DNA of 64,000 bases from Candidatus Gallimonas intestinigallinarum (GTDB taxonomy: Bacteria; Bacillota; Clostridia; Christensenellales; Borkfalkiaceae): positions 403-64,402 of the forward strand of contig CALVLM010000011.1 in NCBI GenBank assembly GCA_944338075.1, in the 5' to 3' direction. Positions 50,918-64,000 of this stretch are shown here, piece by piece. The translations under genes were made by a program, and so were the position numbers. The notes beneath the pieces were generated by a model, which searched no databases, had not been told where the DNA came from, and saw only the letters and a program-made list of their open reading frames with translations. Position 1 is the stretch's first letter, and each line of letters starts with the position of its first letter.

Positions 50918-51652
50918 ATGATGATTTTTGTTTTGATAGCATTTTCAGCCGGATTGATATGCGCCATTGTTCTGTGCTGTAAGGTGCTGTATAAACTGCA
51001 TCTCAACGTTCATGCCTTTCTGCGCGGGACGCCTGACATCGGCGTCGCGAGGTACAACCTGAAAGACGGGATTTCCGTCATGTACCGTGCGCCTGCTCCG
51101 TCCGATCGGGCATTGCGCGGATATCAAATATATACCATGCAGAAGAGAAAGGAAAAGTTTTTTGTCGCGGAGTGGGCGGACGGCGCGCGGAGTGCCGAAT
51201 ATGATCTTGTGCTGTACGACGCGTGCAACCGCGTGATCGATATCATGCGGATCGCGGAGGTGCGCGGCGGACGGGCATATACGCACAAATATACGCTCCC
51301 AGCAAAGACGGACTATCTTTCTCTCTCCGTGCGCTCCGTCAATGGCGGACGGCTTGTCTCCGGCTGCGCAATCTCCCTCAAAACGTGCGCCCATATCTTG
51401 TTTGCGGCAGTCGTTTCCGCGCTGTTTGCGTGTGTGATCGCCTGGGTTACATGTTCCATCGTGTTTCTGGCGCAGAGCGGCCTTGCGGGCATCTCGTTCG
51501 GCGGCTGGATGCATCTGCTGCCTGCTTCCGGCTTTGCTGCTTTCGGGTGCTCCGTGCTCATCTCCCTGTATCCTGTTGCCGCGGGGGCATTCCGTGCATG
51601 GGCGGAAAGGATCCGCAGATCACGCCTGAAAGGAGGCGGTCATGGGATATAG
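50918..51652 (+). CDS. Hypothetical membrane protein: N-terminal TM helix, ~120-aa soluble domain and a C-terminal TM bundle
   Basis: 244-aa ORF. Hydrophobic segments MMIFVLIAFSAGLICAIVLCC and HILFAAVVSALFACVIAWVTCSIVFL. No family recognised. Confidence 0.6.
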   Translation: MMIFVLIAFSAGLICAIVLCCKVLYKLHLNVHAFLRGTPDIGVARYNLKDGISVMYRAPAPSDRALRGYQIYTMQKRKEKFFVAEWADGARSAEYDLVLYDACNRVIDIMRIAEVRGGRAYTHKYTLPAKTDYLSLSVRSVNGGRLVSGCAISLKTCAHILFAAVVSALFACVIAWVTCSIVFLAQSGLAGISFGGWMHLLPASGFAAFGCSVLISLYPVAAGAFRAWAERIRRSRLKGGGHGI

Positions 51653-52154
51653 TGCTCCGGTCTATACATACAGCCAAAATGAGCAGAAGGACTTCCCCGT
51701 ATTTGTCAGTCAACTGCTCCTGTATAATGAAAACGGGTGCGTCCTCAGCCTGCGCGTGCGAAATGTGATCGGGGTCATCGTGACGGGGTTGCGGATCAGA
51801 CTGCGCATGTACGACGCCAAGGGCGGGCTGATCGGCGCAAAGCAAATGGAGTTTGACGGGCTTGCCTGCGTGTCAGGATCGGAATGTATCTTGCCCAATA
51901 TCATCATGGCGAAGGAATGCTGTTCGGTCGCGGCAGAAGTGGAACTTGTCCGCTCCGGGCGCTACGAATATTCGCTGTCAGAGGGGAAGGTGAAAGTTGT
52001 ATACCGCCGCGAAGGGGAAGAAGTGCGCATCGGGCGGCGTCCCTTTCATTGCAGTTTTCTGCGTTCGCCGACATATCGCAGATTTTCCGTGCTGTTTACG
52101 TTGCTCTTTGTGAGCGCGGTATCTGCGGCGGTGCTGATCCTGGCGTTCGTGTGA
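51642..52154 (+). CDS. Hypothetical protein with a C-terminal TM anchor
   Basis: 170 aa. 11-nt overlap with the preceding gene. C-terminal FSVLFTLLFVSAVSAAVLILAFV. Confidence 0.55.
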   Translation: MGYSAPVYTYSQNEQKDFPVFVSQLLLYNENGCVLSLRVRNVIGVIVTGLRIRLRMYDAKGGLIGAKQMEFDGLACVSGSECILPNIIMAKECCSVAAEVELVRSGRYEYSLSEGKVKVVYRREGEEVRIGRRPFHCSFLRSPTYRRFSVLFTLLFVSAVSAAVLILAFV

Positions 52155-52187: not shown

Positions 52188-55100
52188 ATGTTAAAACACA
52201 AAAATGAAATAGAAAAACTTACGCTGCGTCAGAAGACGGCGCTGCTGACCCAATTTGACCGTCTGTCCGACAGCGGGATCAACAGCGCGGGGATCCCGCG
52301 TGTAAAGCGTGCGGAGCTGGACGATCTTGTAAGAGAGAGCGAATACCCCGCTTATTCCTCGATTATCAATTGCTGGGACTCTGCGCTGATTGAACAGATG
52401 ACGACCGAACTTGCCCTGCGCGCAAGGGAGGCCGGTTACAATTTTCTCGTCACGCCCGATCTGAAGGCAGTGAGCAATCCGTACAAGGAGGGCTTGTCCG
52501 AGGACGCCTTTCTGAACGGCAAGGCAGGGGCTGCGATCAGCCGTGCCGTCAAAGCGGCGGGGGCGGCTTGTTGTCTGGAGGGACTGTACCTCGGGGAAGA
52601 GGACGCGGAGTTCCTGGATATGGAACAGGATCGATCCGCGGTCTGTTCCCTGTTTGAAATGCCATTTTTTTACGCCTTGGAGGATACGTCCTGCGATGCC
52701 GTGGGCTGTTCCATGGCTTCGGCGGGCTGCGGGTACGCCTTCGTGAATGCGGAGCTGTTTGATGCCGCAGTTGGAGGTCGGTATGGCAAGGATGCCTTCG
52801 TCGTTGGCAGAGATATCGCGCCCGATACCGACTTTCACGATTTTCTCAACGGAAATACCTGTATCGGCGGCGCTACGCTAGCACTGGACAGGGCGGCGGT
52901 CCGCTATACGCAGTTAAAAGAGTATATTGCCGAGGGGGGAGCTACGGACCGCGATCTGCAGGTCGCGATAGCGGACGGGAAGGCGATCTCGCAGGAGACA
53001 ATCGACAGCGCGGTCGACGGGGTCATCGCATTTGCGCACCGCGTGTCCTCGAGGCGTCCCGCGACCATCGCGTCGCCTGCTGAAAATACCGTCGCTGAGG
53101 CCGCACGCGCTTCCATCGTCTTATTGAAGAACAACGGCGTTCTGCCTATCAGGAAGGGCGCGTCCGTCGCCGTGATCGGGGATTTCCGGAACTGGAAAGA
53201 TGAGATCGCGGCATACTATCCCGTCTCCGGGACGGCTGCCGGGTATGAGACGCTTGCAGAGCGCAGCGACGACTTGCTCTTTGCGGCAGGAGAGGCGGCA
53301 AAGTCTGCCGACGTCGTGGTGGCGGTCCTGGAGCAGCGCCGCACCACAGACAGAGCTGCGCGAAGCCTGATGCTCCCGGCAAACAGACTGGCGCTGATCG
53401 ATACGCTGCGCAGCAACACGAAAAAGCTGATTGCCGTAATCGTCGGAGACGCGCCCGTCGATCTGTCTTTCGATGCGTGCTGTTCGGCTGTCCTGATGGT
53501 ACCGTCCGGCGGCGCGTCCTGCGCAAAGGCGCTCGCGGAGGTGCTCAGCGGCGCTTATAATCCGTCCGGGCGGCTTGCCCGCACCTGTTATGACGGCGGA
53601 GATGCCTTTTTTGCGCAGCTGAAAGATCAGATACGTTCAGGTACAAAGCAAGTCGGAAGCCTGTCCGGTTACAGATATCTCGCATCGGAAAAACTGCGAG
53701 TGCGCTATCCCTTCGGATACGGACTCAGCTATACCAGATTTTCCTACTCCTCGCTCAGGATCGACGGGACGAACGTCACATTTACCATCAAAAATACGGG
53801 ACGCCGCGATGGGGTCGAGACGGCGCAGGTGTATGTTGCATACGGGTGCGGAGGGGTAAAAGAACTCAAGGGCTTTGCAAAAGTTTCTCTGAAGGCGGGG
53901 GAGAGCAAGACGGTTCGCGTCTCCATCCCGCCTGTGAAGCCGCAATCGGATGAGACGGGAAGGCAGACGGAATGCCGTACCGTCTATGTCGGCTCGTCGT
54001 CTCAAAATATTAAGCTCAAGGGGACGATGGGCGGCATGGTGCATAAACTGGCGTCGGTTGCCTCCGCCTTCCCGACAGTTCTTTTGCGCTTTGTTAAGGG
54101 GGGCGCAAAGATGCCTTCTGCGTTTCGCATGTCAGCCGTCAGCGACGGAGAGAAGGGATATGAAACATATTCCCCCGGCGCCGTCATGGGCGCGATCTTT
54201 ATTATAGCTGCCATTCTTACGATGGTCATATCGGCATCCTGCTATGTGTTTCTCGGAGCGCAGTTTTTGATCTGGCAATGGGTCCTGGTCGCGGGCGCAG
54301 GGGGCTTGGTCCTCGTCGAAGTAGCTGTCTATATCGCCATGAAACTGCACCGCGAGAAGTTGCTGCATAAACTGGATGCGGAGGACGAAAAAAAGCAATT
54401 TTTATCCGATGCGAAGAGCGCGGTCACGCCTGAGGGCGCATTTGAAGATGCCTTTGAAAAGACGCAGAGCGCCGTACAGACGAGCGAGCCCGTCAGGGAG
54501 GGATTGCACTATTACGAGAAGGGGTTTACCTTTTCGCTGCTGTCCGGGCAGCTGAAAACATTTTTTTCGGAACGCGGTCTGCTGGCGGAAAACAACGTCC
54601 TGTTTGACCTGATCGGTGCATTGACTTGTTCCCGTCTCCTTCTCGTACCCGGGAAGTACACGGAACAGATGTATTCGATGTGCCGCGTGCTGGCAGAGTA
54701 CTTTGGCTGTGCCTCCTATCGCGACAATGCCGCAGGGGTCGCGCAGGCGGGCGGGTTGTTTGTCGTGCGCGATCGGAACGGCATGCGAAGTACTAATTTA
54801 AGAGCGGCCGTGGAACAGGCGTCGCGAAATACACGCGTTCCCCATGTGGCGGCGGTCGGACATATTTGTGGACAATATGCGCAGGAATTGCTGGGGACGC
54901 TTGCGTGGGGGCTGGAGCAGCACGGCGGCAATCCCGCGCACTTTGAAGCCTACGCCGACGGGCTGAGTGCCGTGCACAGCCTTCCGCCCAATTTGTGGAT
55001 CGTCGCCGCGGTCGACGGCGATATCGACTCTCTCTCGGAGACGTTGACGGAAATCGCGACCGTTTTCATTCCCGATTTTCTCAGGGGACCCGTCTCGTCC

Positions 55101-55526
55101 GAAACGTCGCTGTGCAAACCGCTCAGTTATTTTCAGTTTGAAAATATGCGGCGGTTGGTGCGAGAGCAGTTCCCGCTGGAAGAACAGTTCTGGAAGCGGG
55201 TGGACCGTCTGGAAGAGGGGATTGCGGGGATGCGTCCATACCGGGTGGGAAACAGGCTCTGGAACAAGATGGAGATATTTGCCTCTGCCTTTGCGGCGTC
55301 CGGCGGCACGGAGGCGGATGCGCTCGACGGCGCAGTCGCCTGTTGCCTGTTGGCGGGGGTCTTTACCGATCGTCAGGACAAAGAATACGCGGGGCAAGTC
55401 CTTGCAGAGCTGGAAGCGGCGCTTGGAGAGGAACAGACTACGCAGTGCAAGCGGATGATGCAGTTGCTGCAATCTTTCGGAGAACAGCCCGATCCCCAAT
55501 TCAAGGAGGCTAAATCAAGTGAGTAA
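52188..55526 (+). CDS. GH3-like domain, TM hairpin and degenerate McrB-like AAA+ domain fusion protein
   Basis: The N-terminal ~600 aa are GH3-like, including the Fn3-like LRVRYPFGYGLSYTRF..FTIKNTGRRDGVETAQVYV..ELKGFAKVSLKAGESKTVRVSI. Two TM helices lie at ~54181-54350. The C-terminal ~340 aa are collinear with the two downstream AAA+ proteins but lack Walker A and Walker B. Confidence 0.8.
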   Translation: MLKHKNEIEKLTLRQKTALLTQFDRLSDSGINSAGIPRVKRAELDDLVRESEYPAYSSIINCWDSALIEQMTTELALRAREAGYNFLVTPDLKAVSNPYKEGLSEDAFLNGKAGAAISRAVKAAGAACCLEGLYLGEEDAEFLDMEQDRSAVCSLFEMPFFYALEDTSCDAVGCSMASAGCGYAFVNAELFDAAVGGRYGKDAFVVGRDIAPDTDFHDFLNGNTCIGGATLALDRAAVRYTQLKEYIAEGGATDRDLQVAIADGKAISQETIDSAVDGVIAFAHRVSSRRPATIASPAENTVAEAARASIVLLKNNGVLPIRKGASVAVIGDFRNWKDEIAAYYPVSGTAAGYETLAERSDDLLFAAGEAAKSADVVVAVLEQRRTTDRAARSLMLPANRLALIDTLRSNTKKLIAVIVGDAPVDLSFDACCSAVLMVPSGGASCAKALAEVLSGAYNPSGRLARTCYDGGDAFFAQLKDQIRSGTKQVGSLSGYRYLASEKLRVRYPFGYGLSYTRFSYSSLRIDGTNVTFTIKNTGRRDGVETAQVYVAYGCGGVKELKGFAKVSLKAGESKTVRVSIPPVKPQSDETGRQTECRTVYVGSSSQNIKLKGTMGGMVHKLASVASAFPTVLLRFVKGGAKMPSAFRMSAVSDGEKGYETYSPGAVMGAIFIIAAILTMVISASCYVFLGAQFLIWQWVLVAGAGGLVLVEVAVYIAMKLHREKLLHKLDAEDEKKQFLSDAKSAVTPEGAFEDAFEKTQSAVQTSEPVREGLHYYEKGFTFSLLSGQLKTFFSERGLLAENNVLFDLIGALTCSRLLLVPGKYTEQMYSMCRVLAEYFGCASYRDNAAGVAQAGGLFVVRDRNGMRSTNLRAAVEQASRNTRVPHVAAVGHICGQYAQELLGTLAWGLEQHGGNPAHFEAYADGLSAVHSLPPNLWIVAAVDGDIDSLSETLTEIATVFIPDFLRGPVSSETSLCKPLSYFQFENMRRLVREQFPLEEQFWKRVDRLEEGIAGMRPYRVGNRLWNKMEIFASAFAASGGTEADALDGAVACCLLAGVFTDRQDKEYAGQVLAELEAALGEEQTTQCKRMMQLLQSFGEQPDPQFKEAKSSE

Positions 55527-56835
55527 CGTTATCAACGTATTGACTGCGGATGGCGCGTCGAGCGTGCTGGAGATCCTGACAAGTCCTTTGCTCATCATTA
55601 TTTATATTGCCGTCGTCATCCTTCTCATCCTGCTCGTGGTGATCTCCGTCATGATCAACGAACGCCGGTTTAATCAGTCGGTCAAACGCATTCTCTCGCA
55701 GGCAAAAAAGACGGAAAAGCTCGATCAGCTTGAACGGGAGGAAAAGGCGGGAAAGAACAAAAATCGTTTTGAACTGCTCAAAAAGATCGATGCGGAGGGG
55801 GTGAACAAACGCAGCGATTTTACGCAGTCGTGCACCCTCCATGAGATCTGCGATGAATTCCGCCTCTTTGCCGCAAACCGCCTGAATTTGTACTATGATA
55901 TCTCCGATATCAGGCAATTTGTCGCGGGGCTTGCTGTTTCCCGCATCCTGATCCTGCAGGGTATGTCGGGTACGGGCAAAACGTCGCTCGCGTATGCGTT
56001 CGGGGAATTTATCGATAATTCCTCTGTCGTCATTCCCGTGCAGCCGATGTGGAAGGAGCGCACCGACCTGCTCGGGTACTACAATGAGTTCACCCGCCGC
56101 TTCAACGAAACGCTGCTTTTGGAGAAGATGTATGAGGCGGGCGAGCGGGAGGACATGTATATCACGATCATGGACGAACTCAATATCGCCCGCGTGGAAT
56201 ACTATTTTGCAGAATTTTTGTCTCTGCTGGAGATCCCCAATCCTGAGGCTCGCTATCTGGAAGTGGTGTCCGATCATTGGGAGACCGACCCCGCGAAGCT
56301 AAAGAACGGGCGTATCAGGCTGCCTGAAAACATGTGGTTTGTAGGGACGGCAAACAACGACGATTCCACGTTTTCCATCTCCGACAAGGTGTACGACAGA
56401 GCGATGGTCCTCAATCTTGACCGCAAGTCGGAGCCCTTTCAGACTTCGAGCAGCAAAAAGATGCCGCTCACCGCGAAAAAGTTCGATGAACTGGCACGCA
56501 AGGCAGTAGAGGACTATTCTGTCACGCAGGAAAGTCTTGCGCGCCTCGATCAGCTGGATAAATACCTGATCGAAAAGTTCCAGATCACTTTCGGCAACAG
56601 AATCATGCGTCAGATTCTGCGCTATATTCCGATCTTTATCGCATGCGGCGGAACGGAGCCGGAAGCACTGGACGATATTCTGACAAAGAAGGTACTGCGT
56701 AAACTGGAGACGCAGAATACTGCCTACTTGCGCAGCGAATCCGAGGAACTTTGCAACTATATTGAGGGATTGTTCGGCGAGAACGCCATGCCGCGTTGCA
56801 CCGAGTATATCCGCCGTATTGCAAGGAATATTTGA
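55519..56835 (+). CDS. Membrane-anchored McrB-like AAA+ GTPase (paralog 1)
   Basis: N-terminal TM helix SPLLIIIYIAVVILLILLVVISVMI. P-loop LILQGMSGTGKTS and Walker B region ITIMDELNIARVEYYFAEFLSLLE. McrB-signature-like WFVGTANNDDSTFSISDKVYDRAMVL. A GTG start follows AAGGAGG. Confidence 0.85.
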   Translation: MSNVINVLTADGASSVLEILTSPLLIIIYIAVVILLILLVVISVMINERRFNQSVKRILSQAKKTEKLDQLEREEKAGKNKNRFELLKKIDAEGVNKRSDFTQSCTLHEICDEFRLFAANRLNLYYDISDIRQFVAGLAVSRILILQGMSGTGKTSLAYAFGEFIDNSSVVIPVQPMWKERTDLLGYYNEFTRRFNETLLLEKMYEAGEREDMYITIMDELNIARVEYYFAEFLSLLEIPNPEARYLEVVSDHWETDPAKLKNGRIRLPENMWFVGTANNDDSTFSISDKVYDRAMVLNLDRKSEPFQTSSSKKMPLTAKKFDELARKAVEDYSVTQESLARLDQLDKYLIEKFQITFGNRIMRQILRYIPIFIACGGTEPEALDDILTKKVLRKLETQNTAYLRSESEELCNYIEGLFGENAMPRCTEYIRRIARNI

Positions 56836-56845
56836 GGCGTAAAAC

Positions 56846-58663
56846 ATGACGCAGACCGATCTGTATTTTCGTGCATATCTCGACTATAAAACGGCGCTCC
56901 AAAAGGACAGGGAGACGTCCACACTTCGCGCCGCCCTTGTGCAGGCGGAGCAAGCGGAGCATATCGCCAGCGTGCGCGCAGTTTGTGAGATCGAAAACGA
57001 TTGGGTGGACGCCGTCGAGCGCGGGCTGATCTATATCGGAAGGTCGATCGATGAGGAGCGACAATTCATCCTTTCCCAGGGCGAAGTCCAGCCCATCGAG
57101 AAGATCAAGCGCGTCTCCAAGGAATCGGTGGAGCACCTTGCGCGGCACAGCAACCTGATCATGCACGAACAAAAGAGTGCAGATGATATTGTACCCGACA
57201 AACTCTATACGGTGGAAAGGTTGAGCAATTATGCCGTATACGAGAACAGGTTTTTATTCATGCTCCTGAACATGGTCAAAGATTTTGTCTCGGTGCGCTA
57301 TAACGCCATCGTCCGCCTGACCAATACATATCACGGGAAACTCTCGGTCGACAAGGCGGTCTCCCTGGGAAAGCACAGGCTGCGCTATCGGCTGGAGCTG
57401 GACGATGAGCGTGAGGATGATCCTGTCATGCGCGCGAATAATAACGTCCGCGAGACGCTGGAGCGTATGGAGATCATCTTGCGTACGGTGCACTACTATC
57501 TGAATACGCCGCTGATGACGGAGGTCGCGAAGGCGGATAAGCTCAAGCCGCCCATCACCAAGACCAATCCGCTGCGCATGGATAAAAATCTCAAGGAGAC
57601 GGTCGTCCTCTATGAGTTTCTGATGGCGTATGAGAAGGACGGCTACACGATCACGCAGGAGGAACAATTGCTCAATCCGCGAAAGGGGGATGTGGCGGAC
57701 GAACTTGTCGATCCCGCTCTGCTCGCCGCCTTTCTCACATACGAAAGCACGCTTGCCCTGAAAGACGAGCTGCTGCGCCGCTATCAGGAGGAGGAAGCGC
57801 GCAGGCGGGCGGAGGAACTGCGCGAAGTCGAGGCACAGCTATCGTCCATCCGCGACCGGATGCGGGAAACGGGCTGGACAGAGCGTTATATCGCACTGTT
57901 GGAAAAGAAAAACAGTCTGCTGGAGCGCGAGAATGAGCGCGTCGCTGCGTTGCGTTCGCGCATGGAGGAGCTGGAAGGATTAAACAATGCGCTTCATGAG
58001 CAGATCGCCGCGCATGCGGCAGAGCTGGAATGCATCGGCGAGGCACACGCCAGAGAGATTTCAGATTATCAGGCGCGCCTTGATGAGCAGCGGCAAAAGC
58101 TTGCCGAGGAAATGGCAGAGCGCGCCAATGAGCGCAGCCGTCTGGAAGAACAGAGGCGTGCGGAACTTGCGAAGCTGCGGGAGGAGACGGATGCACTGCT
58201 CGCCGAAAGAGACGGCCGCTATCTGGAAAAATCGCGCGAGGCAGAGGATTTGACGGAGCGCCTTGCACGGCTTGCAAAACAAAAAGCCCTCAACGATGCC
58301 CGTCTGAACGGGCTTCGGCAGCAATACGGACTGTTGTCTCCCATGGATGATTTTTCCTCCGAGGAAGCCTTTACGGAACTGGAAGATGAACTTGAGGCGC
58401 TGTATGAGTTGGTTCGTGGCGAATGGAAGAATGCGAAAGAGATCTTGCGGAGAAATTTCCTGCATGACCTCAAGGACATTATAAGCGGTAAAAAACGCAA
58501 AGCTGCCGCTGCGAAAAAGGCAGAAGTTTTGCCGGAGGAAGACGAGGCCGCTGCTGCACATGAGGCTCCGGAGCAGGTTGCGGCAGAGCCCGCAGAACAG
58601 GACGGCGGCGAAATTGCATTAGCGGAGGGCGAACAGCGCAATGAAGAAACAAGAAGGACCTAA
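56846..58663 (+). CDS. McrC/DUF2357-like N-terminal domain fused to a long coiled coil; no nuclease motif seen
   Basis: LSNYAVYENRFLFMLLNMV and KPPITKTNPLRMDKNLKETVVLYEFL resemble the McrC N-terminal (DUF2357) pattern, recognised from memory. Residues ~300-540 are heptad-rich and Glu/Arg/Leu-rich. The tail is acidic. Confidence 0.6.
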   Translation: MTQTDLYFRAYLDYKTALQKDRETSTLRAALVQAEQAEHIASVRAVCEIENDWVDAVERGLIYIGRSIDEERQFILSQGEVQPIEKIKRVSKESVEHLARHSNLIMHEQKSADDIVPDKLYTVERLSNYAVYENRFLFMLLNMVKDFVSVRYNAIVRLTNTYHGKLSVDKAVSLGKHRLRYRLELDDEREDDPVMRANNNVRETLERMEIILRTVHYYLNTPLMTEVAKADKLKPPITKTNPLRMDKNLKETVVLYEFLMAYEKDGYTITQEEQLLNPRKGDVADELVDPALLAAFLTYESTLALKDELLRRYQEEEARRRAEELREVEAQLSSIRDRMRETGWTERYIALLEKKNSLLERENERVAALRSRMEELEGLNNALHEQIAAHAAELECIGEAHAREISDYQARLDEQRQKLAEEMAERANERSRLEEQRRAELAKLREETDALLAERDGRYLEKSREAEDLTERLARLAKQKALNDARLNGLRQQYGLLSPMDDFSSEEAFTELEDELEALYELVRGEWKNAKEILRRNFLHDLKDIISGKKRKAAAAKKAEVLPEEDEAAAAHEAPEQVAAEPAEQDGGEIALAEGEQRNEETRRT

Positions 58664-60083
58664 AAAACACTACAAGCTGTCCATATTTTTCATCGCGCTT
58701 GTCGCCATTGCGGGCGGACTGTTGCTGACTGCCCTGATCTACTTGCAGGTTACGGGTCAGTTTGCCGCGCTCACGGAGGCGATCCGGGAAATTGTCGCGC
58801 AGAACACCATCTACGGGATCCTGATCCTATTCTGGGTCATCATCATTCCGTTGATGCTCGTCCTGATCTTTGTGCTCAATCTGTTCAGGAGGGACAGGTT
58901 CAAGAAGATCAAAAAGGGCTGGGAGGACGCGGCGCGGATCGTCGCCGAAAAGGAGGCGGCAGCCAGGAAGCGGGAAGAGGAAAAGAAAAAACAGACCATT
59001 TCCCGCTTCGGGACACTGAACAGCTACGATCACAAATCGCCCGCCCGTAAGGCGGACCAGGCGGCGCTTACGCTCACGCTCGGCGATTTTTGCGACAACT
59101 TCCGTATGTTTGCGGCGCAGAAGTTTCGATTGTACTATGATATTTCCGTCATCAGACAGTTTGTGGCGGGGCTTGCCGTCTCGCACCTGATGATCTTGCA
59201 GGGCATGTCGGGCACGGGCAAAACATCGATCGCCTATGCGTTCGGCGAGTTTCTCGGAAATTCTTCGGAGATCGTTCCCGTGCAGCCCGTCTGGAAGGAG
59301 CGCACCGATCTTCTGGGCTATTACAATGAGTTTACAAAAAAGTATAACGAAACGCCTTTCCTGCAAAAGATGTACCAGGCAAACGCAAGCGATAAGCTGT
59401 ATGTCGTCGTCCTGGATGAGCTGAACATTGCACGCGTGGAATACTACTTTGCGGAGTTTCTCTCACTGCTGGAGATCCCCGATCCCAATTCTCGCTACCT
59501 TGAAGTCGTACCTGACCGCTGGCCGACCGATCCCGCAGGTCTGCAAAACGGGAGAATCAGACTGCCCGACAACATGTGGTTTATCGGCACGGCAAACAAC
59601 GACGATTCCACCTTCGCGATCTCCGACAAGGTGTACGACAGGGCAATGGTCATCAATCTTGACAGCAAGGCAGAGCCCTTCTTGCCGGACGGCGACGAGG
59701 TGCGCTGTGTTCCCATTTCCGCCGCCGGATTCAGGAAGTTGATTGCCTCTGCGCAGGCGGGGTATGAGATCACCAACCGCAATATGCGCAGGCTCAGAGA
59801 GTTGGACGAATACCTGATCGAAAAATTTCAGATCACCTTCGGAAACCGTATCATGCGGCAGATCAAGGACTATATTTCCGTCTATGTCGGATGCGGTGGT
59901 GACGAAATGGAAGCGCTCGATGATATCATATCCAAAAAAGTGCTTCGGAAGTTGGAGATGCAGAACGCCGTATACGTCAAAAATCAGGCGGAAGCGCTGT
60001 GCAACTACCTTTGCGAGCTGTTCGGCGAAACTAAAGTTCCCAAGTGCATTGCATATGTCAGGCGCGTCGCGCGGAATGCGTAA
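58641..60083 (+). CDS. Membrane-anchored McrB-like AAA+ GTPase (paralog 2)
   Basis: Two N-terminal TM helices. MILQGMSGTGKTS, VVVLDELNIARVEYYFAEFLSLLE and WFIGTANNDDSTFAISDKVYDRAMVI. The core is highly similar to paralog 1. Confidence 0.85.
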   Translation: MKKQEGPKKHYKLSIFFIALVAIAGGLLLTALIYLQVTGQFAALTEAIREIVAQNTIYGILILFWVIIIPLMLVLIFVLNLFRRDRFKKIKKGWEDAARIVAEKEAAARKREEEKKKQTISRFGTLNSYDHKSPARKADQAALTLTLGDFCDNFRMFAAQKFRLYYDISVIRQFVAGLAVSHLMILQGMSGTGKTSIAYAFGEFLGNSSEIVPVQPVWKERTDLLGYYNEFTKKYNETPFLQKMYQANASDKLYVVVLDELNIARVEYYFAEFLSLLEIPDPNSRYLEVVPDRWPTDPAGLQNGRIRLPDNMWFIGTANNDDSTFAISDKVYDRAMVINLDSKAEPFLPDGDEVRCVPISAAGFRKLIASAQAGYEITNRNMRRLRELDEYLIEKFQITFGNRIMRQIKDYISVYVGCGGDEMEALDDIISKKVLRKLEMQNAVYVKNQAEALCNYLCELFGETKVPKCIAYVRRVARNA

Positions 60084-60092
60084 GGAGGGTAT

Positions 60093-62369
60093 ATGAACGG
60101 TAGATCCAGACTTTTATATGTTTTTGGTACGATCGTTGTCGTCCTTATTTCGGCAGTGATCATTGCCGCATGCCTGATCGGTGCCGGAAACGGTTTTGGA
60201 CTGATCAACTGGTCAGCATTGGGATCGGGCGGTACGGGCGGCGGCACGGGCGGCGGTGGTTTGCCCGGCGGCGGTGGTTTGCCCGGCGGCGGTGATACGC
60301 AGATCGAGTGCCACGAGCATGAACTGACTTACTTGGAGCAGAAAGACCCGACCTGTACGGAAGAGGGAAATATCGCGTGCTGGTACTGCGAAACATGTGA
60401 TGTGTATTTTGTGGACGCGTGCGGGCAGATTGTCCTGTCGGAGGACGAGGTGTTTCTCGACTCGCTCGGACATGATTTTTCCGAGGAATGGGAGTACACC
60501 ACCTCAGAGCACTATCATCCCTGCATTCGCTGCGATGCGCAGTCCGGCAATGAGGAGCATATTTATAACGCGAGCGATGTTTGTATCGTGTGCGGATATG
60601 AAAAGCCTGAGGAAGTTCCGCCTGAAGGCGGCGGAGGCGGAGAGTTTTCCGGACTCGATCTGAGCGGCCTGATCAGAGGACCGATGTTTTACAATGATGC
60701 CGTAATTGCATATGTCTATTCCGATACGTCCGGCGGCGAGTACCTCAAAGTCAAGAGTTTTGGCGACTATGCCGGCTTTATGTGGGATTCTGCGGAGGCG
60801 TATGACGGGAGACTTGTTGCCGATTACTCGATGAATTATCTCACGGGGGCTTGGATGGGAAATGAGCATGTGCCGTCAAAAATGACCATCCTCAACAAGA
60901 CTTCGCTCTATATTCTTCCGAGCTATCTGGCTGTCGGGGCGGGCGGATACGAGATACAGAGCAGCGACGTGCTGTATGTCGGCAAGTATACGGCGAGCTA
61001 TACGGTCCCGTATTCCACCAATGCGGACGTCAGGGGGAGTCTTTCCTCTGCCCCCGATCTCGGCGCGTACAGCGCCGCGGAGGCAGCGTACAGGCAGTAT
61101 GTTTATGAAAACTATCTCTCCGTTCCCGCGTCAACATTGGAGTTTTTGTTGCAGTATGCGGAGGAACACGGCATCTCTCCCTCCGATGAGAATTTGATTT
61201 GGGAAATTGAGGCGCTGATCCGTTCCTCTGCAACGTACAATATGCAATATGACAGAGACATGGATGCGGAGGAGGATATCGTGGTCGCGTTTCTCGATCG
61301 TTATCGAGAGGGGACGTGCTCGCATTTCGCTTCGGCTGCGACGTTGATGTATCGCGCACTTGGTATCCCGGCGCGCTATGTAACGGGGTGCGTCTGTACG
61401 ACTTCCGCCGGGCAGTACGCCGTCGTGACGGGCAATCAGGCGCATGCCTGGACGGAGATCTATCTCGATGGCTGCGGCTGGATCACGATCGATGCCACTG
61501 GGAGTGGGGGGCTTGGCGGAGGGCTGCCTGGTGGAGGACTGCCCGGCGGGGAAGAGCCCGGCGGAGAACAGCCCGGCGGGGAAGAGCCCGGCGGAGAACA
61601 GCCCGGCGGGGAAGAGCCCGGCGGGGAAGAGCCCGGCGGAGAACAGCCCGGCGGGGAAGAGCCCGGCGGAGAACAGCCCGGCGGAGAACAGCCCGGCGGA
61701 GAACAGCCCGGCGGAGAACAGCCCGGCGGAGAACAGCCCGGCGGGGAAGAGCCCGGCGGGGAAGAGCCCGGCGGGGAAGAGCCCGGCGGGGAAGAGCCCG
61801 GCGGGGAAGAGCCCGGCGGGGAACAACCCGGCGGACAACAGCCGCCTTCCATTGCTCCCACCCGTACATTACAAATCACGACCCAGGACATCGTTGCCGA
61901 ATATGACGGTACGGCGCATTTCAGCGAGGACTTCTCCGTTGTCGGGCTGGCGAGCGGGCACAGAATTCAAACATTCAACGTGACGAAATTGACGAGGGTC
62001 GGCGTCGCGACCAATGAAGTGGCGGGAATTCTCGTCTATGACAGCCTCGGAAACGATGTCACGACCATGTACAAGATGGAATATACCTATGGAACGATTA
62101 CCGTGACGCCGCGGTCGATCACGATCGAGACAGGCTCGGCATCCAAGGTATATGACGGAACGCCGTTGCAATGCGATACATATTCGGTCACGTCGGGCGC
62201 GCTTGCGGAGGGCGATCAGATCGGCGAGATTGTTTTTACCGGCACTCAGACCGAGCATGGAAGAAGTCAGAACGGCATTTCCGACCTTGTGATATACGAT
62301 CGTAACGGGACGGATGTAACCACATGCTATTCGATCGAGGTCGTCGCAGGCACATTGACGGTCTATTGA
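60093..62369 (+). CDS. Membrane-anchored surface protein: Cys/His-rich module, transglutaminase-like core, PGGE(E/Q) linker and two MBG-type repeats
   Basis: N-terminal TM helix. Transglutaminase core GTCSHFASAATLMYRALGIPARYV..AHAWTEIYLDGCGWITIDATG. 20 x PGGE[EQ] units. KVYDGTPL-type repeats. AAGGAGG Shine-Dalgarno sequence. Confidence 0.85.
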   Translation: MNGRSRLLYVFGTIVVVLISAVIIAACLIGAGNGFGLINWSALGSGGTGGGTGGGGLPGGGGLPGGGDTQIECHEHELTYLEQKDPTCTEEGNIACWYCETCDVYFVDACGQIVLSEDEVFLDSLGHDFSEEWEYTTSEHYHPCIRCDAQSGNEEHIYNASDVCIVCGYEKPEEVPPEGGGGGEFSGLDLSGLIRGPMFYNDAVIAYVYSDTSGGEYLKVKSFGDYAGFMWDSAEAYDGRLVADYSMNYLTGAWMGNEHVPSKMTILNKTSLYILPSYLAVGAGGYEIQSSDVLYVGKYTASYTVPYSTNADVRGSLSSAPDLGAYSAAEAAYRQYVYENYLSVPASTLEFLLQYAEEHGISPSDENLIWEIEALIRSSATYNMQYDRDMDAEEDIVVAFLDRYREGTCSHFASAATLMYRALGIPARYVTGCVCTTSAGQYAVVTGNQAHAWTEIYLDGCGWITIDATGSGGLGGGLPGGGLPGGEEPGGEQPGGEEPGGEQPGGEEPGGEEPGGEQPGGEEPGGEQPGGEQPGGEQPGGEQPGGEQPGGEEPGGEEPGGEEPGGEEPGGEEPGGEQPGGQQPPSIAPTRTLQITTQDIVAEYDGTAHFSEDFSVVGLASGHRIQTFNVTKLTRVGVATNEVAGILVYDSLGNDVTTMYKMEYTYGTITVTPRSITIETGSASKVYDGTPLQCDTYSVTSGALAEGDQIGEIVFTGTQTEHGRSQNGISDLVIYDRNGTDVTTCYSIEVVAGTLTVY
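60252..60294 (+). repeat. 18-nt tandem duplication (about 2.4 copies) encoding GGGLPG
   Basis: GGCGGTGGTTTGCCCGGC occurs at 60252-60269 and 60270-60287, followed by a partial third copy. Confidence 0.85.
61542..61841 (+). repeat. 15-nt tandem repeat x20 encoding PGGEE/PGGEQ
   Basis: Units of CCCGGCGGGGAAGAG or CCCGGCGGAGAACAG run in phase from 61542. Only the last two units are degenerate. Confidence 0.95.
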
Positions 62370-62381
62370 CAGGGGATCAGA

Positions 62382-64000
62382 ATGCTCTATCAATCGTATC
62401 AACAAAAACTTGATCATCTGACAGCGATTTTTGCGAAAATCTGGCACTTTCGCATTCTCATTGTCTGCGCCGTCGTATTTGTCGTCGCATTGATAGGCGT
62501 TTTGCTGGGTATCACAGGGACCATCGTTTCGTTCCGCTGCGATTCGTCGGTATGGTATGGCGATGAATTGCAGGTCTCGGCTTCGGCGATCTTTAAGGGC
62601 GTAACGTATGAGTATCGGCAGGCGGGCGGAACCTGGGGCAGCGAGCGTCCGACAAAAGTTGGCAACTATGAGGTGCGGGCGTCGGCGGACGGCATCGGCG
62701 GAACACGGTACAGTCAGGTTCTTTCGTTTTCGGTGCTGCCGCGTCCCACCGAAGTAACGATCGTGCAGGAAACTCTGGTCTATGGGGAGACGCCCGTTGC
62801 GACGGCAGAGCTTGTCTATTCCGATGAGATCCTATCGCAGTCCGTAGCGTATGAAATCGAGGATGCGAACTTTATGATTTCCTCGGCAGAGCTCACTGTC
62901 GTCAACGAAGCGGGCGAGGAGGTCACGGAAAACTATCAGTTTAGCTTTCAGCCTTGCAGCGTCGCCATGGCGCCCCGCCCCATCACGATCTCCGTCGAGG
63001 ACGCCGTAAAAGTGTATGACGGCACGCCGCTCACGTCCCGCGAATATTGCATTGCCGATGGCTCGCTGGTCGAAGGGGATCGCCTTGAAGTGGACTTTTC
63101 CGCTTCCGTGACCTTGGCATCGACGGTCGAAAATACGCCCGTGGTTCATATCTTGGATCGTGCCGGTACGGATATTACCGCGTACTACGATATCACCATC
63201 GATGTGGGGATGCTTGTGGTGGAGCCGATGGAGATCATGTTGACGACAGGAAGTGCGCAGAGCGTATATGACGGCGCAGATTGGTCAGAGGAGTCATATA
63301 CGGCAAGCGTGCCTCTCCCTGCCGGGCACACTGCAGTATGCTCTGCATTCCCGTCCGTTCGCAATGTGGGCACCTATGAAAATACGGCAACTGTTGTGAT
63401 CGTCAATGCGGAAGGGGAGGACGTGAGCGGAAGTTTTCGCTTACAGATGACGTTCGGAACCCTGACCGTGTTGCCAAGAACGCTGGAGGTGACGACGGGC
63501 TCGCAGACGTGGGCATATGACGGCTTGCCGCATTCCTGCAAGGAGTTTTCCGCCGTTGGTTTGGTTGAAGGCCATGCGATGCAGGTCATGTCTGCAACGT
63601 CCGTCAAGGAGGTCACGGATGACGGCGACATTCCCGGCTATGTGGAGAATATTTTGACGTTTTCCATTATGGATGCACAGAATACGGACGTGAGCGCCAA
63701 CTATTCTCTTCAGATCGACTACGGCAGCTTGCGCATTTCTGAAGCGGTCATCGTGCGCGTGTTCGGGTTGGAAAAGTATTATGACGGAACGCCGCTTTCC
63801 TATACGGAGGACGATTATCGGGTCATCCATCATCCGGAAGGGTACGATGTGCGTGTGATGATCAATGGATCTTTGACCGAACCGGGAAAGCGGACGCCGC
63901 AGGTGACGGTACAGGTCTTTGATGAAAGCGGCAGAGATGTCACAGCACAACAGATGATTTCTGTGATCGGCGAATGCTATCTGCGTGTGCTGCCTCGGAA
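62382..64000 (+). CDS. Membrane-anchored MBG-repeat (YDG-type) surface protein, partial (continues past the window end)
   Basis: This ORF is absent from the track because no stop codon lies in the window. MLYQSYQQKLDHL..TM helix ILIVCAVVFVVALIGVLLGI, then at least 5 repeats with VKVYDGTPL / QSVYDGADW / TWAYDGLPH / EKYYDGTPL cores. Confidence 0.75.
   Translation, partial: MLYQSYQQKLDHLTAIFAKIWHFRILIVCAVVFVVALIGVLLGITGTIVSFRCDSSVWYGDELQVSASAIFKGVTYEYRQAGGTWGSERPTKVGNYEVRASADGIGGTRYSQVLSFSVLPRPTEVTIVQETLVYGETPVATAELVYSDEILSQSVAYEIEDANFMISSAELTVVNEAGEEVTENYQFSFQPCSVAMAPRPITISVEDAVKVYDGTPLTSREYCIADGSLVEGDRLEVDFSASVTLASTVENTPVVHILDRAGTDITAYYDITIDVGMLVVEPMEIMLTTGSAQSVYDGADWSEESYTASVPLPAGHTAVCSAFPSVRNVGTYENTATVVIVNAEGEDVSGSFRLQMTFGTLTVLPRTLEVTTGSQTWAYDGLPHSCKEFSAVGLVEGHAMQVMSATSVKEVTDDGDIPGYVENILTFSIMDAQNTDVSANYSLQIDYGSLRISEAVIVRVFGLEKYYDGTPLSYTEDDYRVIHHPEGYDVRVMINGSLTEPGKRTPQVTVQVFDESGRDVTAQQMISVIGECYLRVLPR

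Follow-up and report, generated by a model that had tools for sequence, protein, structure and literature searches.

The gene considered here encodes a nuclease-free McrC-like protein of Candidatus Gallimonas intestinigallinarum (Bacillota; Clostridia; Christensenellales; Borkfalkiaceae), and it lies between two genes for McrB-like AAA+ proteins. The window, that is, the whole stretch of DNA that was analysed, comprises 64,000 nt of contig CALVLM010000011.1 (assembly GCA_944338075.1, positions 403 to 64,402 of the forward strand), and all coordinates given below are window positions. The gene and the parts of its product are the following.

56846..58663, plus strand: gene of the nuclease-free McrC-like (DUF2357 and coiled-coil) protein, 605 aa, ATG start (list of open reading frames)
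56846..57754, plus strand: N-terminal globular domain, residues 1-303 (AlphaFold2: helices and a four-stranded sheet)
57053..57226, plus strand: putative finger with stalk and loop-helix-loop tip, residues 70-127 (conservation, AlphaFold2)
57062..57622, plus strand: segment homologous to the C-terminal ~60% of DUF2357, residues 73-259 (Pfam PF09823 and hhalign)
57761..58324, plus strand: helical stalk, residues 306-493 (AlphaFold2, predicted local distance difference test score, pLDDT, ~90)
58292..58495, plus strand: conserved C-terminal helical module, residues 483-550 (conservation, alignment, tblastn)
58496..58660, plus strand: disordered acidic Ala-rich tail, residues 551-605 (AlphaFold2 pLDDT <50)

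The McrC-like gene is translationally coupled to two intact McrB-like paralogues with predicted membrane anchors. The upstream gene ends at 56835, leaving a gap of 10 nt to the McrC-like start codon, and a Shine-Dalgarno sequence GAGG (56834-56837), situated 8 nt 5' of the ATG, overlaps its TGA stop codon. The downstream gene starts at 58641 and overlaps the McrC-like reading frame, which ends at 58663, by 23 nt, so that the position exactly between two McrB-like genes reported in the preliminary description of this DNA is accurate. No terminator-like site was detected on the plus strand between 55.5 and 60 kb of the window. The median gaps in relative loci are 9 nt on the 5' side of the McrC-like gene and -4 nt on its 3' side. 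The motifs quoted in the preliminary description are all present in the protein, namely YAVYENRFLFMLLNMVKDF at residues 129-147, PPITKTNPLRMDKNLKETVVLYEFL at residues 235-259 and RLAKQKALNDARLNGLRQQ at residues 475-493; the one correction is trivial, as the string given there as 'EELLRRYQ...' reads DELLRRYQ in the sequence.

DUF2357 domain, absent nuclease and helical stalk

The full-length AlphaFold2 model, built from an alignment of 98 sequences, has a mean pLDDT of 80.6. It comprises a globular part (residues 1-303), a helix from 306 to 340, a single helix of 147 residues (347-493, pLDDT ~90), a further helix from 506 to 550 and a disordered end (551-605). The globular domain is mostly predicted with a pLDDT above 85 outside the finger in both models and is 45-66% identical among homologues. 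Within it, Pfam PF09823 (DUF2357) matches residues 76-160 with 24.9 bits, above the curated gathering cut-off of 23.3, corresponding to profile positions 108-192 of 251. The same family is matched by 16 of 27 diverse homologues at E<=0.01, and relatives of the S26 type, which are discussed below, score 31.4 and 26.3 bits. Since the match in the present protein is short, an independent profile-profile test was built. Canonical DUF2357 proteins were obtained by a PF09823 search of 200 genomes of the same class, and their profile consists of the 794-aa protein L092 with 34 aligned homologues, all annotated PF09823+PF04411. L092 carries DUF2357 at residues 120-369 and the nuclease domain PDDEXK_7 at 393-539, and its gene adjoins a McrB-like gene with the same motifs as those found here. 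When a profile of the present family, restricted to its N-terminal 312 residues, was compared by hhalign with this canonical profile, residues 73-259 aligned to residues 224-372 of L092 (Prob 94%, E 1.2e-7). Three blocks stand out in the alignment, with QFIRSNGEVxPIEKVKxVSxESVEHLARHSN here against HNVxTxExIxxIxKAKxxSRxTIxYIRKHP in the canonical family, VYENRFLYMLL against IFENRFVKYMI, and PPITKTNVLRMDKNFKE..LYE against KKSMSLVFQMAPGYKE..KKY. The aligned segment includes the ENRF helix and the PPITKTN..LYEF motif. The ENRF motif and a later P..tN..l..d..Y motif, in which the preliminary description had seen the DUF2357/McrC pattern, are thereby identified as real landmarks of DUF2357, and both profile comparisons agree with that assignment.

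The best-conserved part of the protein is the putative finger together with the ENRF helix. Residues 61-140 contain the three best-conserved blocks of 20 residues (conservation of 0.84 for 61-80, 0.80 for 81-100, 0.66 for 101-120 and 0.91 for 121-140, the last being the ENRF helix), and E70, R72, F74, I75, G79, I84, K86, L98, H101, P117 and E124 are invariant in the finger region. In both AlphaFold2 models, residues 75-127 have a pLDDT below 50, with helix 92-101 as the only predicted element. Strong conservation combined with low confidence as a monomer would be expected if this segment folds inside a partner ring. The predicted order of elements is a helix (51-69), 58 extended residues of low confidence (70-127) with the short helix 92-101, and another helix (128-159). 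The McrC finger has been described as a pair of antiparallel helices with a beta stalk and, at its tip, a loop-helix-loop (Niu et al, 2020; PMC7680126), and the order predicted here appears compatible with it.

Beyond the DUF2357 segment, the protein departs from the canonical architecture. In the canonical proteins, the nuclease begins ~20 residues past the end of DUF2357 and has the invariant residues D465 and D484-A-K486. In the present protein, DUF2357 homology ends at about residue 259 and AlphaFold2 places helices at the expected position of the nuclease; the helical stalk occupies the position where the nuclease would start. Nuclease families gave no match in 27 family members (this protein and 26 sampled homologues), and for residues 160-312 Pfam returned nothing even at E<=10. 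When the profile of the full-length family was used in hhalign, nothing beyond residue 280 aligned to the PDDEXK_7 part (probability of the second match, 0.1). A conserved D..(D/E)xK signature is absent from the 98 homologues, in which D192 is the sole near-invariant acidic residue past the ENRF helix and DUF2357 core and has no adjacent (D/E)xK. The preliminary description had proposed that a long coiled coil replaces the endonuclease domain and had seen no D..(D/E)xK signature in the single sequence; both statements hold for the family, and the family searches, hhalign and AlphaFold2 reveal no cryptic nuclease. The possibility that residues 247-276 preserve the initial helix and strand of a former nuclease (LYEF..DGY compared with LYEIWCY..LGY) was considered separately and rejected, as hhalign pairs these residues with the last part of DUF2357 and the linker.

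The helical region that follows (306-550) is rich in Glu (19%), Leu (15%), Arg (13.5%) and Ala (12%) and contains 1 Pro. A Fourier test at exactly 3.5 residues was not significant for this sequence and was replaced by a period scan and an analysis of the 98 homologues. In this sequence, the hydrophobic peak lies at 3.55-3.6, marginally above shuffled sequences (P ~0.05). Across the family, the hydrophobic period peaks between 3.45 and 3.65 in 96 of the 98 homologues, and the mean spectrum has one sharp peak at 3.6, as is characteristic of heptads mixed with hendecads. The stalk is 158 to 440 residues long. Its insertions and deletions involve units of 11 and 7 residues, and the lengths in 83 of the 98 proteins fall into three modulo-11 classes spaced by 7 (for example 177, 184, 195, 206, 228, 239 and 250). 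A length that is free to vary while the phase is conserved is what would be expected of a coiled-coil spacer that keeps its two ends in a fixed relative orientation. From a helix rise of ~0.15 nm per residue, a length of roughly 22 nm can be calculated for the helix of 147 residues. In some homologues (P0086, P0077 and P0090), the stalk is expanded by literal tandem repeats of 11 residues (HAEEIRxINEA and similar). The Glu/Arg/Leu/Ala helical region is as real as the preliminary description held; its characterisation as uninterrupted and heptad-like has to be corrected, given the breaks at 341-346, a conserved kink after which the consensus PEEYxLLLEKRN comes, and at 494-505, and a period of ~3.6 rather than a clean 3.5.

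After the variable stalk (conservation 0.30-0.41), conservation climbs to 0.52-0.62 in the C-terminal module, residues 483-550, whose consensus is ARLxALRxExGL...DDFTSEEAFxELE...EWKxAKxxIR. R486, A489, G495, E513, W527 and K531 are invariant or nearly so. The module has no match to a Pfam family and was found by tblastn in 35 of 37 relative loci. The tail that follows is acidic, as had been noticed from the sequence, with 15 D/E against 7 K/R in residues 551-605; its conservation is 0.14-0.21 and its length in homologues varies from 7 to 163 residues.

Membrane-anchored partners and the conserved operon

The genes surrounding the McrC-like gene in the window are listed below.

52188..55526, plus strand: GH3-like protein with a degenerate McrB-like C-terminal domain, 1112 aa, two transmembrane (TM) helices (Pfam Glyco_hydro_3_C, Fn3-like)
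55519..56835, plus strand: upstream McrB-like AAA+ paralogue, 438 aa, one N-terminal TM helix (Pfam AAA_5, NCBIfam McrB)
58641..60083, plus strand: downstream McrB-like AAA+ paralogue, 480 aa, two N-terminal TM helices (McrB similarity)
60093..62369, plus strand: membrane-anchored transglutaminase-core surface protein (Pfam Transglut_core 4e-21, plus YDG and MBG)
62382..64000, plus strand: MBG / AgI_II_C2-repeat surface protein, running off the window (Pfam AgI_II_C2 3.4e-8)

The two flanking AAA+ paralogues are 56% identical to each other, and both match AAA_5 and, weakly, the NCBIfam McrB equivalog. Both keep the motifs GMSGTGKT, DELNIARVEYY and GTANNDDST; the last is compatible with NxxD as well as with NxD and a further D, and an ungapped alignment to NTAD of E. 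coli fits NxxD. Walker A, Walker B and NNDD are intact in both paralogues, and in the upstream one a hydrophobic stretch was read from the sequence at residues 21-45. The best solved relative of the downstream paralogue is E. coli McrB (6hz4, E 7e-5), and their pairwise alignment spans Walker A, Walker B and the N..D signature. A DNA-reader domain is lacking in both. At the N-terminus, each has its TM segment and then a charged linker, and both proteins are predicted to be anchored in the membrane by these helices; the sole matches of these N-termini are weak ones, to FtsL (E 0.067) and FliL. The C-terminal 412 aa of the GH3-like protein also align to the AAA paralogue (E 1e-7), with Walker A and B replaced, and this domain reads as a third, inactive McrB-like paralogue. 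In one relative locus (L003:5431-8703), the GH3-like gene is split into a GH3-like part of 662 aa and a separate part of 415 aa, the latter corresponding to the TM and dead-AAA region, which could reflect a genuine split, a frameshift or faulty assembly. The first two genes of the operon (window 50918-52154) encode small predicted membrane proteins of 244 and 170 aa, for which Pfam gave no match and whose conservation across many relative loci is weak. An S26/SipW-type signal peptidase was found neither in the operon nor in the window (best tblastn E 0.24).

Homologues of the McrC-like protein form more than 1300 clusters at E<=0.001. Relatives occur in at least 279 species-level genomes of gut Clostridia, a group with small genomes, nearly all of them labelled as uncultured gut Clostridia (Ca. 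Gallimonas and metagenome-assembled genomes, MAGs, labelled Christensenellaceae), and one carrier, Anaerocaecibacter muris CLA-AA-M11, is cultured. A contig of 2.2 kb with a McrC-like gene (L087) is labelled 'uncultured Acidiphilium sp.', all other carriers being Clostridia, and is probably mis-binned. Synteny was evaluated in the 37 relative loci of at least 14 kb. All 37 have the same order, in which the GH3-like/dead-AAA gene is followed by a McrB-like, the McrC-like and a second McrB-like gene and then by transglutaminase and/or MBG genes. The upstream core of five genes is invariant. Copy numbers differ past the second AAA+ gene, where 0 to 5 transglutaminase-core genes and 2 to about 5 MBG-repeat genes are present, and the genes outside the operon vary between genomes. 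No nuclease, HEPN, toxin or DNA-reader domain was found in any of these 37 loci. In a wider set of 80 relative loci, 27 (within L036-L091) come from contigs below 4 kb with little beyond the McrC-like gene. Breaks in MAG assemblies seem to fall within the genes of the two flanking AAA+ paralogues, which in the window share 73-81% nucleotide identity over 166-300 nt.

Relation to CoCoPALM, CoCoNuT and McrBC

McrBC derivatives with coiled coils, including the CoCoPALM class and McrC homologues devoid of a nuclease, have been reported (Bell et al, 2024; PMC11090510), as the preliminary description correctly stated for coiled-coil derivatives. The CoCoPALM class was named in that work and left for later study. 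Weaker matches to the McrC-like protein in the same bacterial family belong to a different operon, composed of an S26-like gene, a McrB-like gene with TM and coiled-coil segments, a DUF2357-coiled-coil gene (465-1269 aa) and another S26-like gene; S26-like genes flank the McrC homologue in 18 of 19 such loci. This is the arrangement to which Bell et al gave the name CoCoPALM. The McrB-like GTPases of that class are characterised by an N-terminus with an FtsB-like TM and coiled-coil segment and by an NxD rather than NxxD signature (Bell et al, 2024). When the N-domains of McrC homologues were compared in a tree, the present type grouped with the S26 type (Shimodaira-Hasegawa-like approximate likelihood ratio test, SH-aLRT, 99), at a large distance from DUF2357 proteins that bear a nuclease. 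Sequences of the S26 type make up a single clade (93), and branches are much shorter among those of the present type. To our knowledge, CoCoPALM has never been studied by experiment.

The similarity to CoCoPALM is considerable. In both, a McrB-like NTPase is membrane-anchored by an N-terminal TM segment, the McrC homologue combines DUF2357 with a coiled coil and has no nuclease, and the genes lie in operons for secreted or surface proteins. The S26-flanked examples share 24-30% identity with the present type in their N-domains and 39-45% in their AAA domains. Unlike CoCoPALM, the present operon lacks an S26/SipW-type signal peptidase, its McrB-like gene is duplicated with a copy on each side of the McrC-like gene, a third, dead McrB-like domain is fused to the GH3-like protein, and the partners are transglutaminase-core and MBG/AgI_II proteins. 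The terms 'transglutaminase' and 'glycos*' are absent from the text and the searched supplements of Bell et al (PMC11090510), and these supplements likewise gave nothing for GH3 or CoCoPALM. Transglutaminase-type and S26-flanked CoCoPALM-type modules coexist in two genomes, on contigs C22 and C11 of G085 and on contigs C2 and C4 of G025, which argues against simple redundancy. In one S26-type (CoCoPALM) locus of the same bacterial family, a gene for an EAL-domain protein is situated directly upstream of the McrB-like gene (L008:5787-6641).

The comparison with McrC of McrBC itself (E. coli and T. gammatolerans; PDB 6ut6, 6ut5 and 7vsr; PMC7680126) suggests a common N-terminal activator (finger) domain with an ENRF/ANRII helix, and in both cases the gene adjoins one of the McrB family. 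In contrast to McrC, the present protein has no PD-(D/E)xK nuclease, its McrB partners have no DNA-reader domain and the complex is predicted to be membrane-anchored. The canonical proteins of Clostridia with DUF2357 and PDDEXK_7 (PF09823+PF04411) align with the present protein in the finger/ENRF region and in the motif S/T-x-x-V/L-x-x-M-x-x-x-F/Y-K-E...Y, and their McrB partners share the motifs GxSGTGK, DE(L/M)N(L/I)ARVEYY and N(N/M)DD. After DUF2357, they have a nuclease where the present protein has a coiled coil; the present protein moreover contains an additional beta-hairpin (162-189) and cannot be aligned over residues 1-72. CoCoNuT systems (CnuB/CnuC; PMC11090510) likewise carry coiled coils on components of the McrBC family, and some CnuC (Type III-A) have lost the nuclease. 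Unlike in the present system, their long coiled coil is on the McrB homologue rather than on the McrC homologue, a gene for HEPN or another nuclease always lies close by and RNA-binding domains are frequent. The present protein should not be filed as McrC, since the defining nuclease is absent, nor as a strict CoCoPALM component, since the signal peptidase is lacking. The system is a new variant of the CoCoPALM-type McrBC derivatives, whose new elements are the proposed ring of three paralogues, the pseudo-glycosidase, the transglutaminase context and the rule by which stalk length follows hendecads and heptads.

Possible function of the complex

We consider it reasonably probable that the protein takes the place of McrC in a derivative of McrBC that is tethered to the membrane and free of nuclease, and whose NTPase is coupled to surface proteins and not to DNA cleavage. 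We propose that the finger (residues ~70-127 and the ENRF helix) would insert into a ring of McrB-like paralogues beneath the membrane, where it would stimulate and order NTP hydrolysis in the manner of McrC within McrBC (Niu et al, 2020). From the likeness to McrC, we infer that the McrC-like protein stimulates hydrolysis, and the finger being the best-conserved part fits this role. In McrBC, a dimer of McrC bridges two hexamers (Niu et al, 2020; PMC7680126). The stalk could take over the dimerising role of the lost nuclease domain and act as a spacer of fixed phase, presenting the C-terminal module to a partner that would most likely be another product of the operon. The NTPase cycle would thereby be coupled to the assembly or control of surface proteins. 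A part as scaffold or adaptor is what we suggest for the stalk; the preliminary description had left a choice between scaffold and effector, of which effector is the weaker half, since no catalytic motif is present. McrB-family proteins can be co-opted for cellular functions, as is the case for PcdA of Staphylococcus aureus (PMC10602043). It has been proposed that the McrC finger steps around inside the McrB ring (Niu et al, 2020; PMC7680126). A bolder and quite improbable extension would make the complex a membrane-fixed mechanical NTPase, with the TM-held McrB-like ring as a stator, the finger stepping inside it and the phase-conserved coiled coil as a shaft or lever acting on membrane proteins of the operon, gating transglutaminase cross-linking or the display of MBG adhesin fibres. 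Were this true, the motor of a restriction enzyme would have been rebuilt as an inside-out envelope machine.

Several observations weigh against the proposal of a McrC-equivalent subunit. The PF09823 match spans just one third of the profile, Tyr or Phe stands where canonical proteins have Lys after ENRF (ENRFVK; ANRIIK in E. coli), and the catalytic Arg/Lys of McrC could not be mapped onto the McrC-like protein. Stalk length does not covary significantly with the length of the linkers between TM and AAA segments (rho ~0.35, p ~0.07). Foldseek searches of PDB with the full-length and N-domain models gave nothing at E<0.001 and retrieved no McrC chain. Among PDB sequences, phmmer with the McrC-like protein returned coiled-coil noise and no McrC match, and a hidden Markov model of the canonical DUF2357+PDDEXK_7 proteins did not match McrC either; the comparison of the family profile with the single sequence of E. 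coli McrC, which Pfam assigns to McrBC (PF10117) and not to DUF2357, was uninformative (hhalign Prob 0.1). Since neither sequence nor fold searches link the protein to solved McrC, the equation of DUF2357 with the N-domain of McrC rests on gene context and on the literature, from which it was taken (Bell et al, 2024, PMC11090510; PcdA preprint, PMC10602043). Finally, the spread is patchy, clear orthologues being present in ~11 of 101 genomes at the level of the family and in 4 of 7 at that of the genus, which marks the module as accessory and also fits a role in defence.

Such a role, in an anti-phage or conflict system at the membrane, would make the complex a CoCoNuT- or CoCoPALM-like type IV derivative in which the McrC-like protein activates and scaffolds an immune NTPase and the surface proteins serve as sensors, decoys or effectors. 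The McrBC ancestry favours it, as do the patchy distribution, the flanking genes that differ between genomes and the widely varying numbers of transglutaminase and MBG genes. It is nonetheless rather unlikely. An effector domain is lacking in all 37 loci, the McrC-like protein matches no PADLOC model, and the slow evolution of its N-domain, with 45-66% identity between genera and short branches in the tree, is unlike that of typical arms-race proteins. Both AAA paralogues match the PADLOC candidate PDC-M26A (1e-47 and 5e-53); this candidate also matches McrB of a canonical nuclease-bearing pair, so that it only says 'McrB-like', and nothing was found in the literature under 'PDC-M26'. A DUF2357 remnant that had lost GTPase activation could, alternatively, merely anchor a structural coiled-coil or cytoskeleton-like tether to the AAA+ proteins. 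The replaced Lys and the recognition of just ~60% of DUF2357 would be in line with such a tether, for which degenerate McrB-family scaffolds provide a precedent (PcdA, PMC10602043). We judge it distinctly unlikely, as the catalytic motifs are intact in both flanking AAA+ paralogues and the conservation of finger and ENRF helix exceeds the constraint that simple tethering needs. A nuclease that is cryptic or acts in trans, with which the system would still restrict nucleic acids, has its best argument in CoCoNuTs with nuclease-less McrC, which always encode another nuclease nearby (Bell et al, PMC11090510). This reading is already largely refuted and very improbable: besides the negative searches of the protein and its homologues described above, the conserved operon consists of GH3-like, AAA, transglutaminase and MBG genes alone, and the McrB-like paralogues have TM helices as N-termini and no DNA-reader domain.

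McrBC is the textbook example of a GTP-driven restriction enzyme. If the McrC-like protein is indeed the activator of a membrane-tethered NTPase, the present family would have retained the activator subunit and lost every part related to nucleic acids, and the motor would have become membrane-bound beside genes for surface proteins. The CoCoPALM class is widened by a distinct architecture, with two active McrB paralogues and one dead one, a pseudo-glycosidase and transglutaminase/MBG partners, and by a design rule in which the length of the stalk changes solely in coiled-coil repeat units. The cultured carrier Anaerocaecibacter muris CLA-AA-M11 helps to make testable what role a McrBC motor that does not cut DNA may play in these gut Clostridia.

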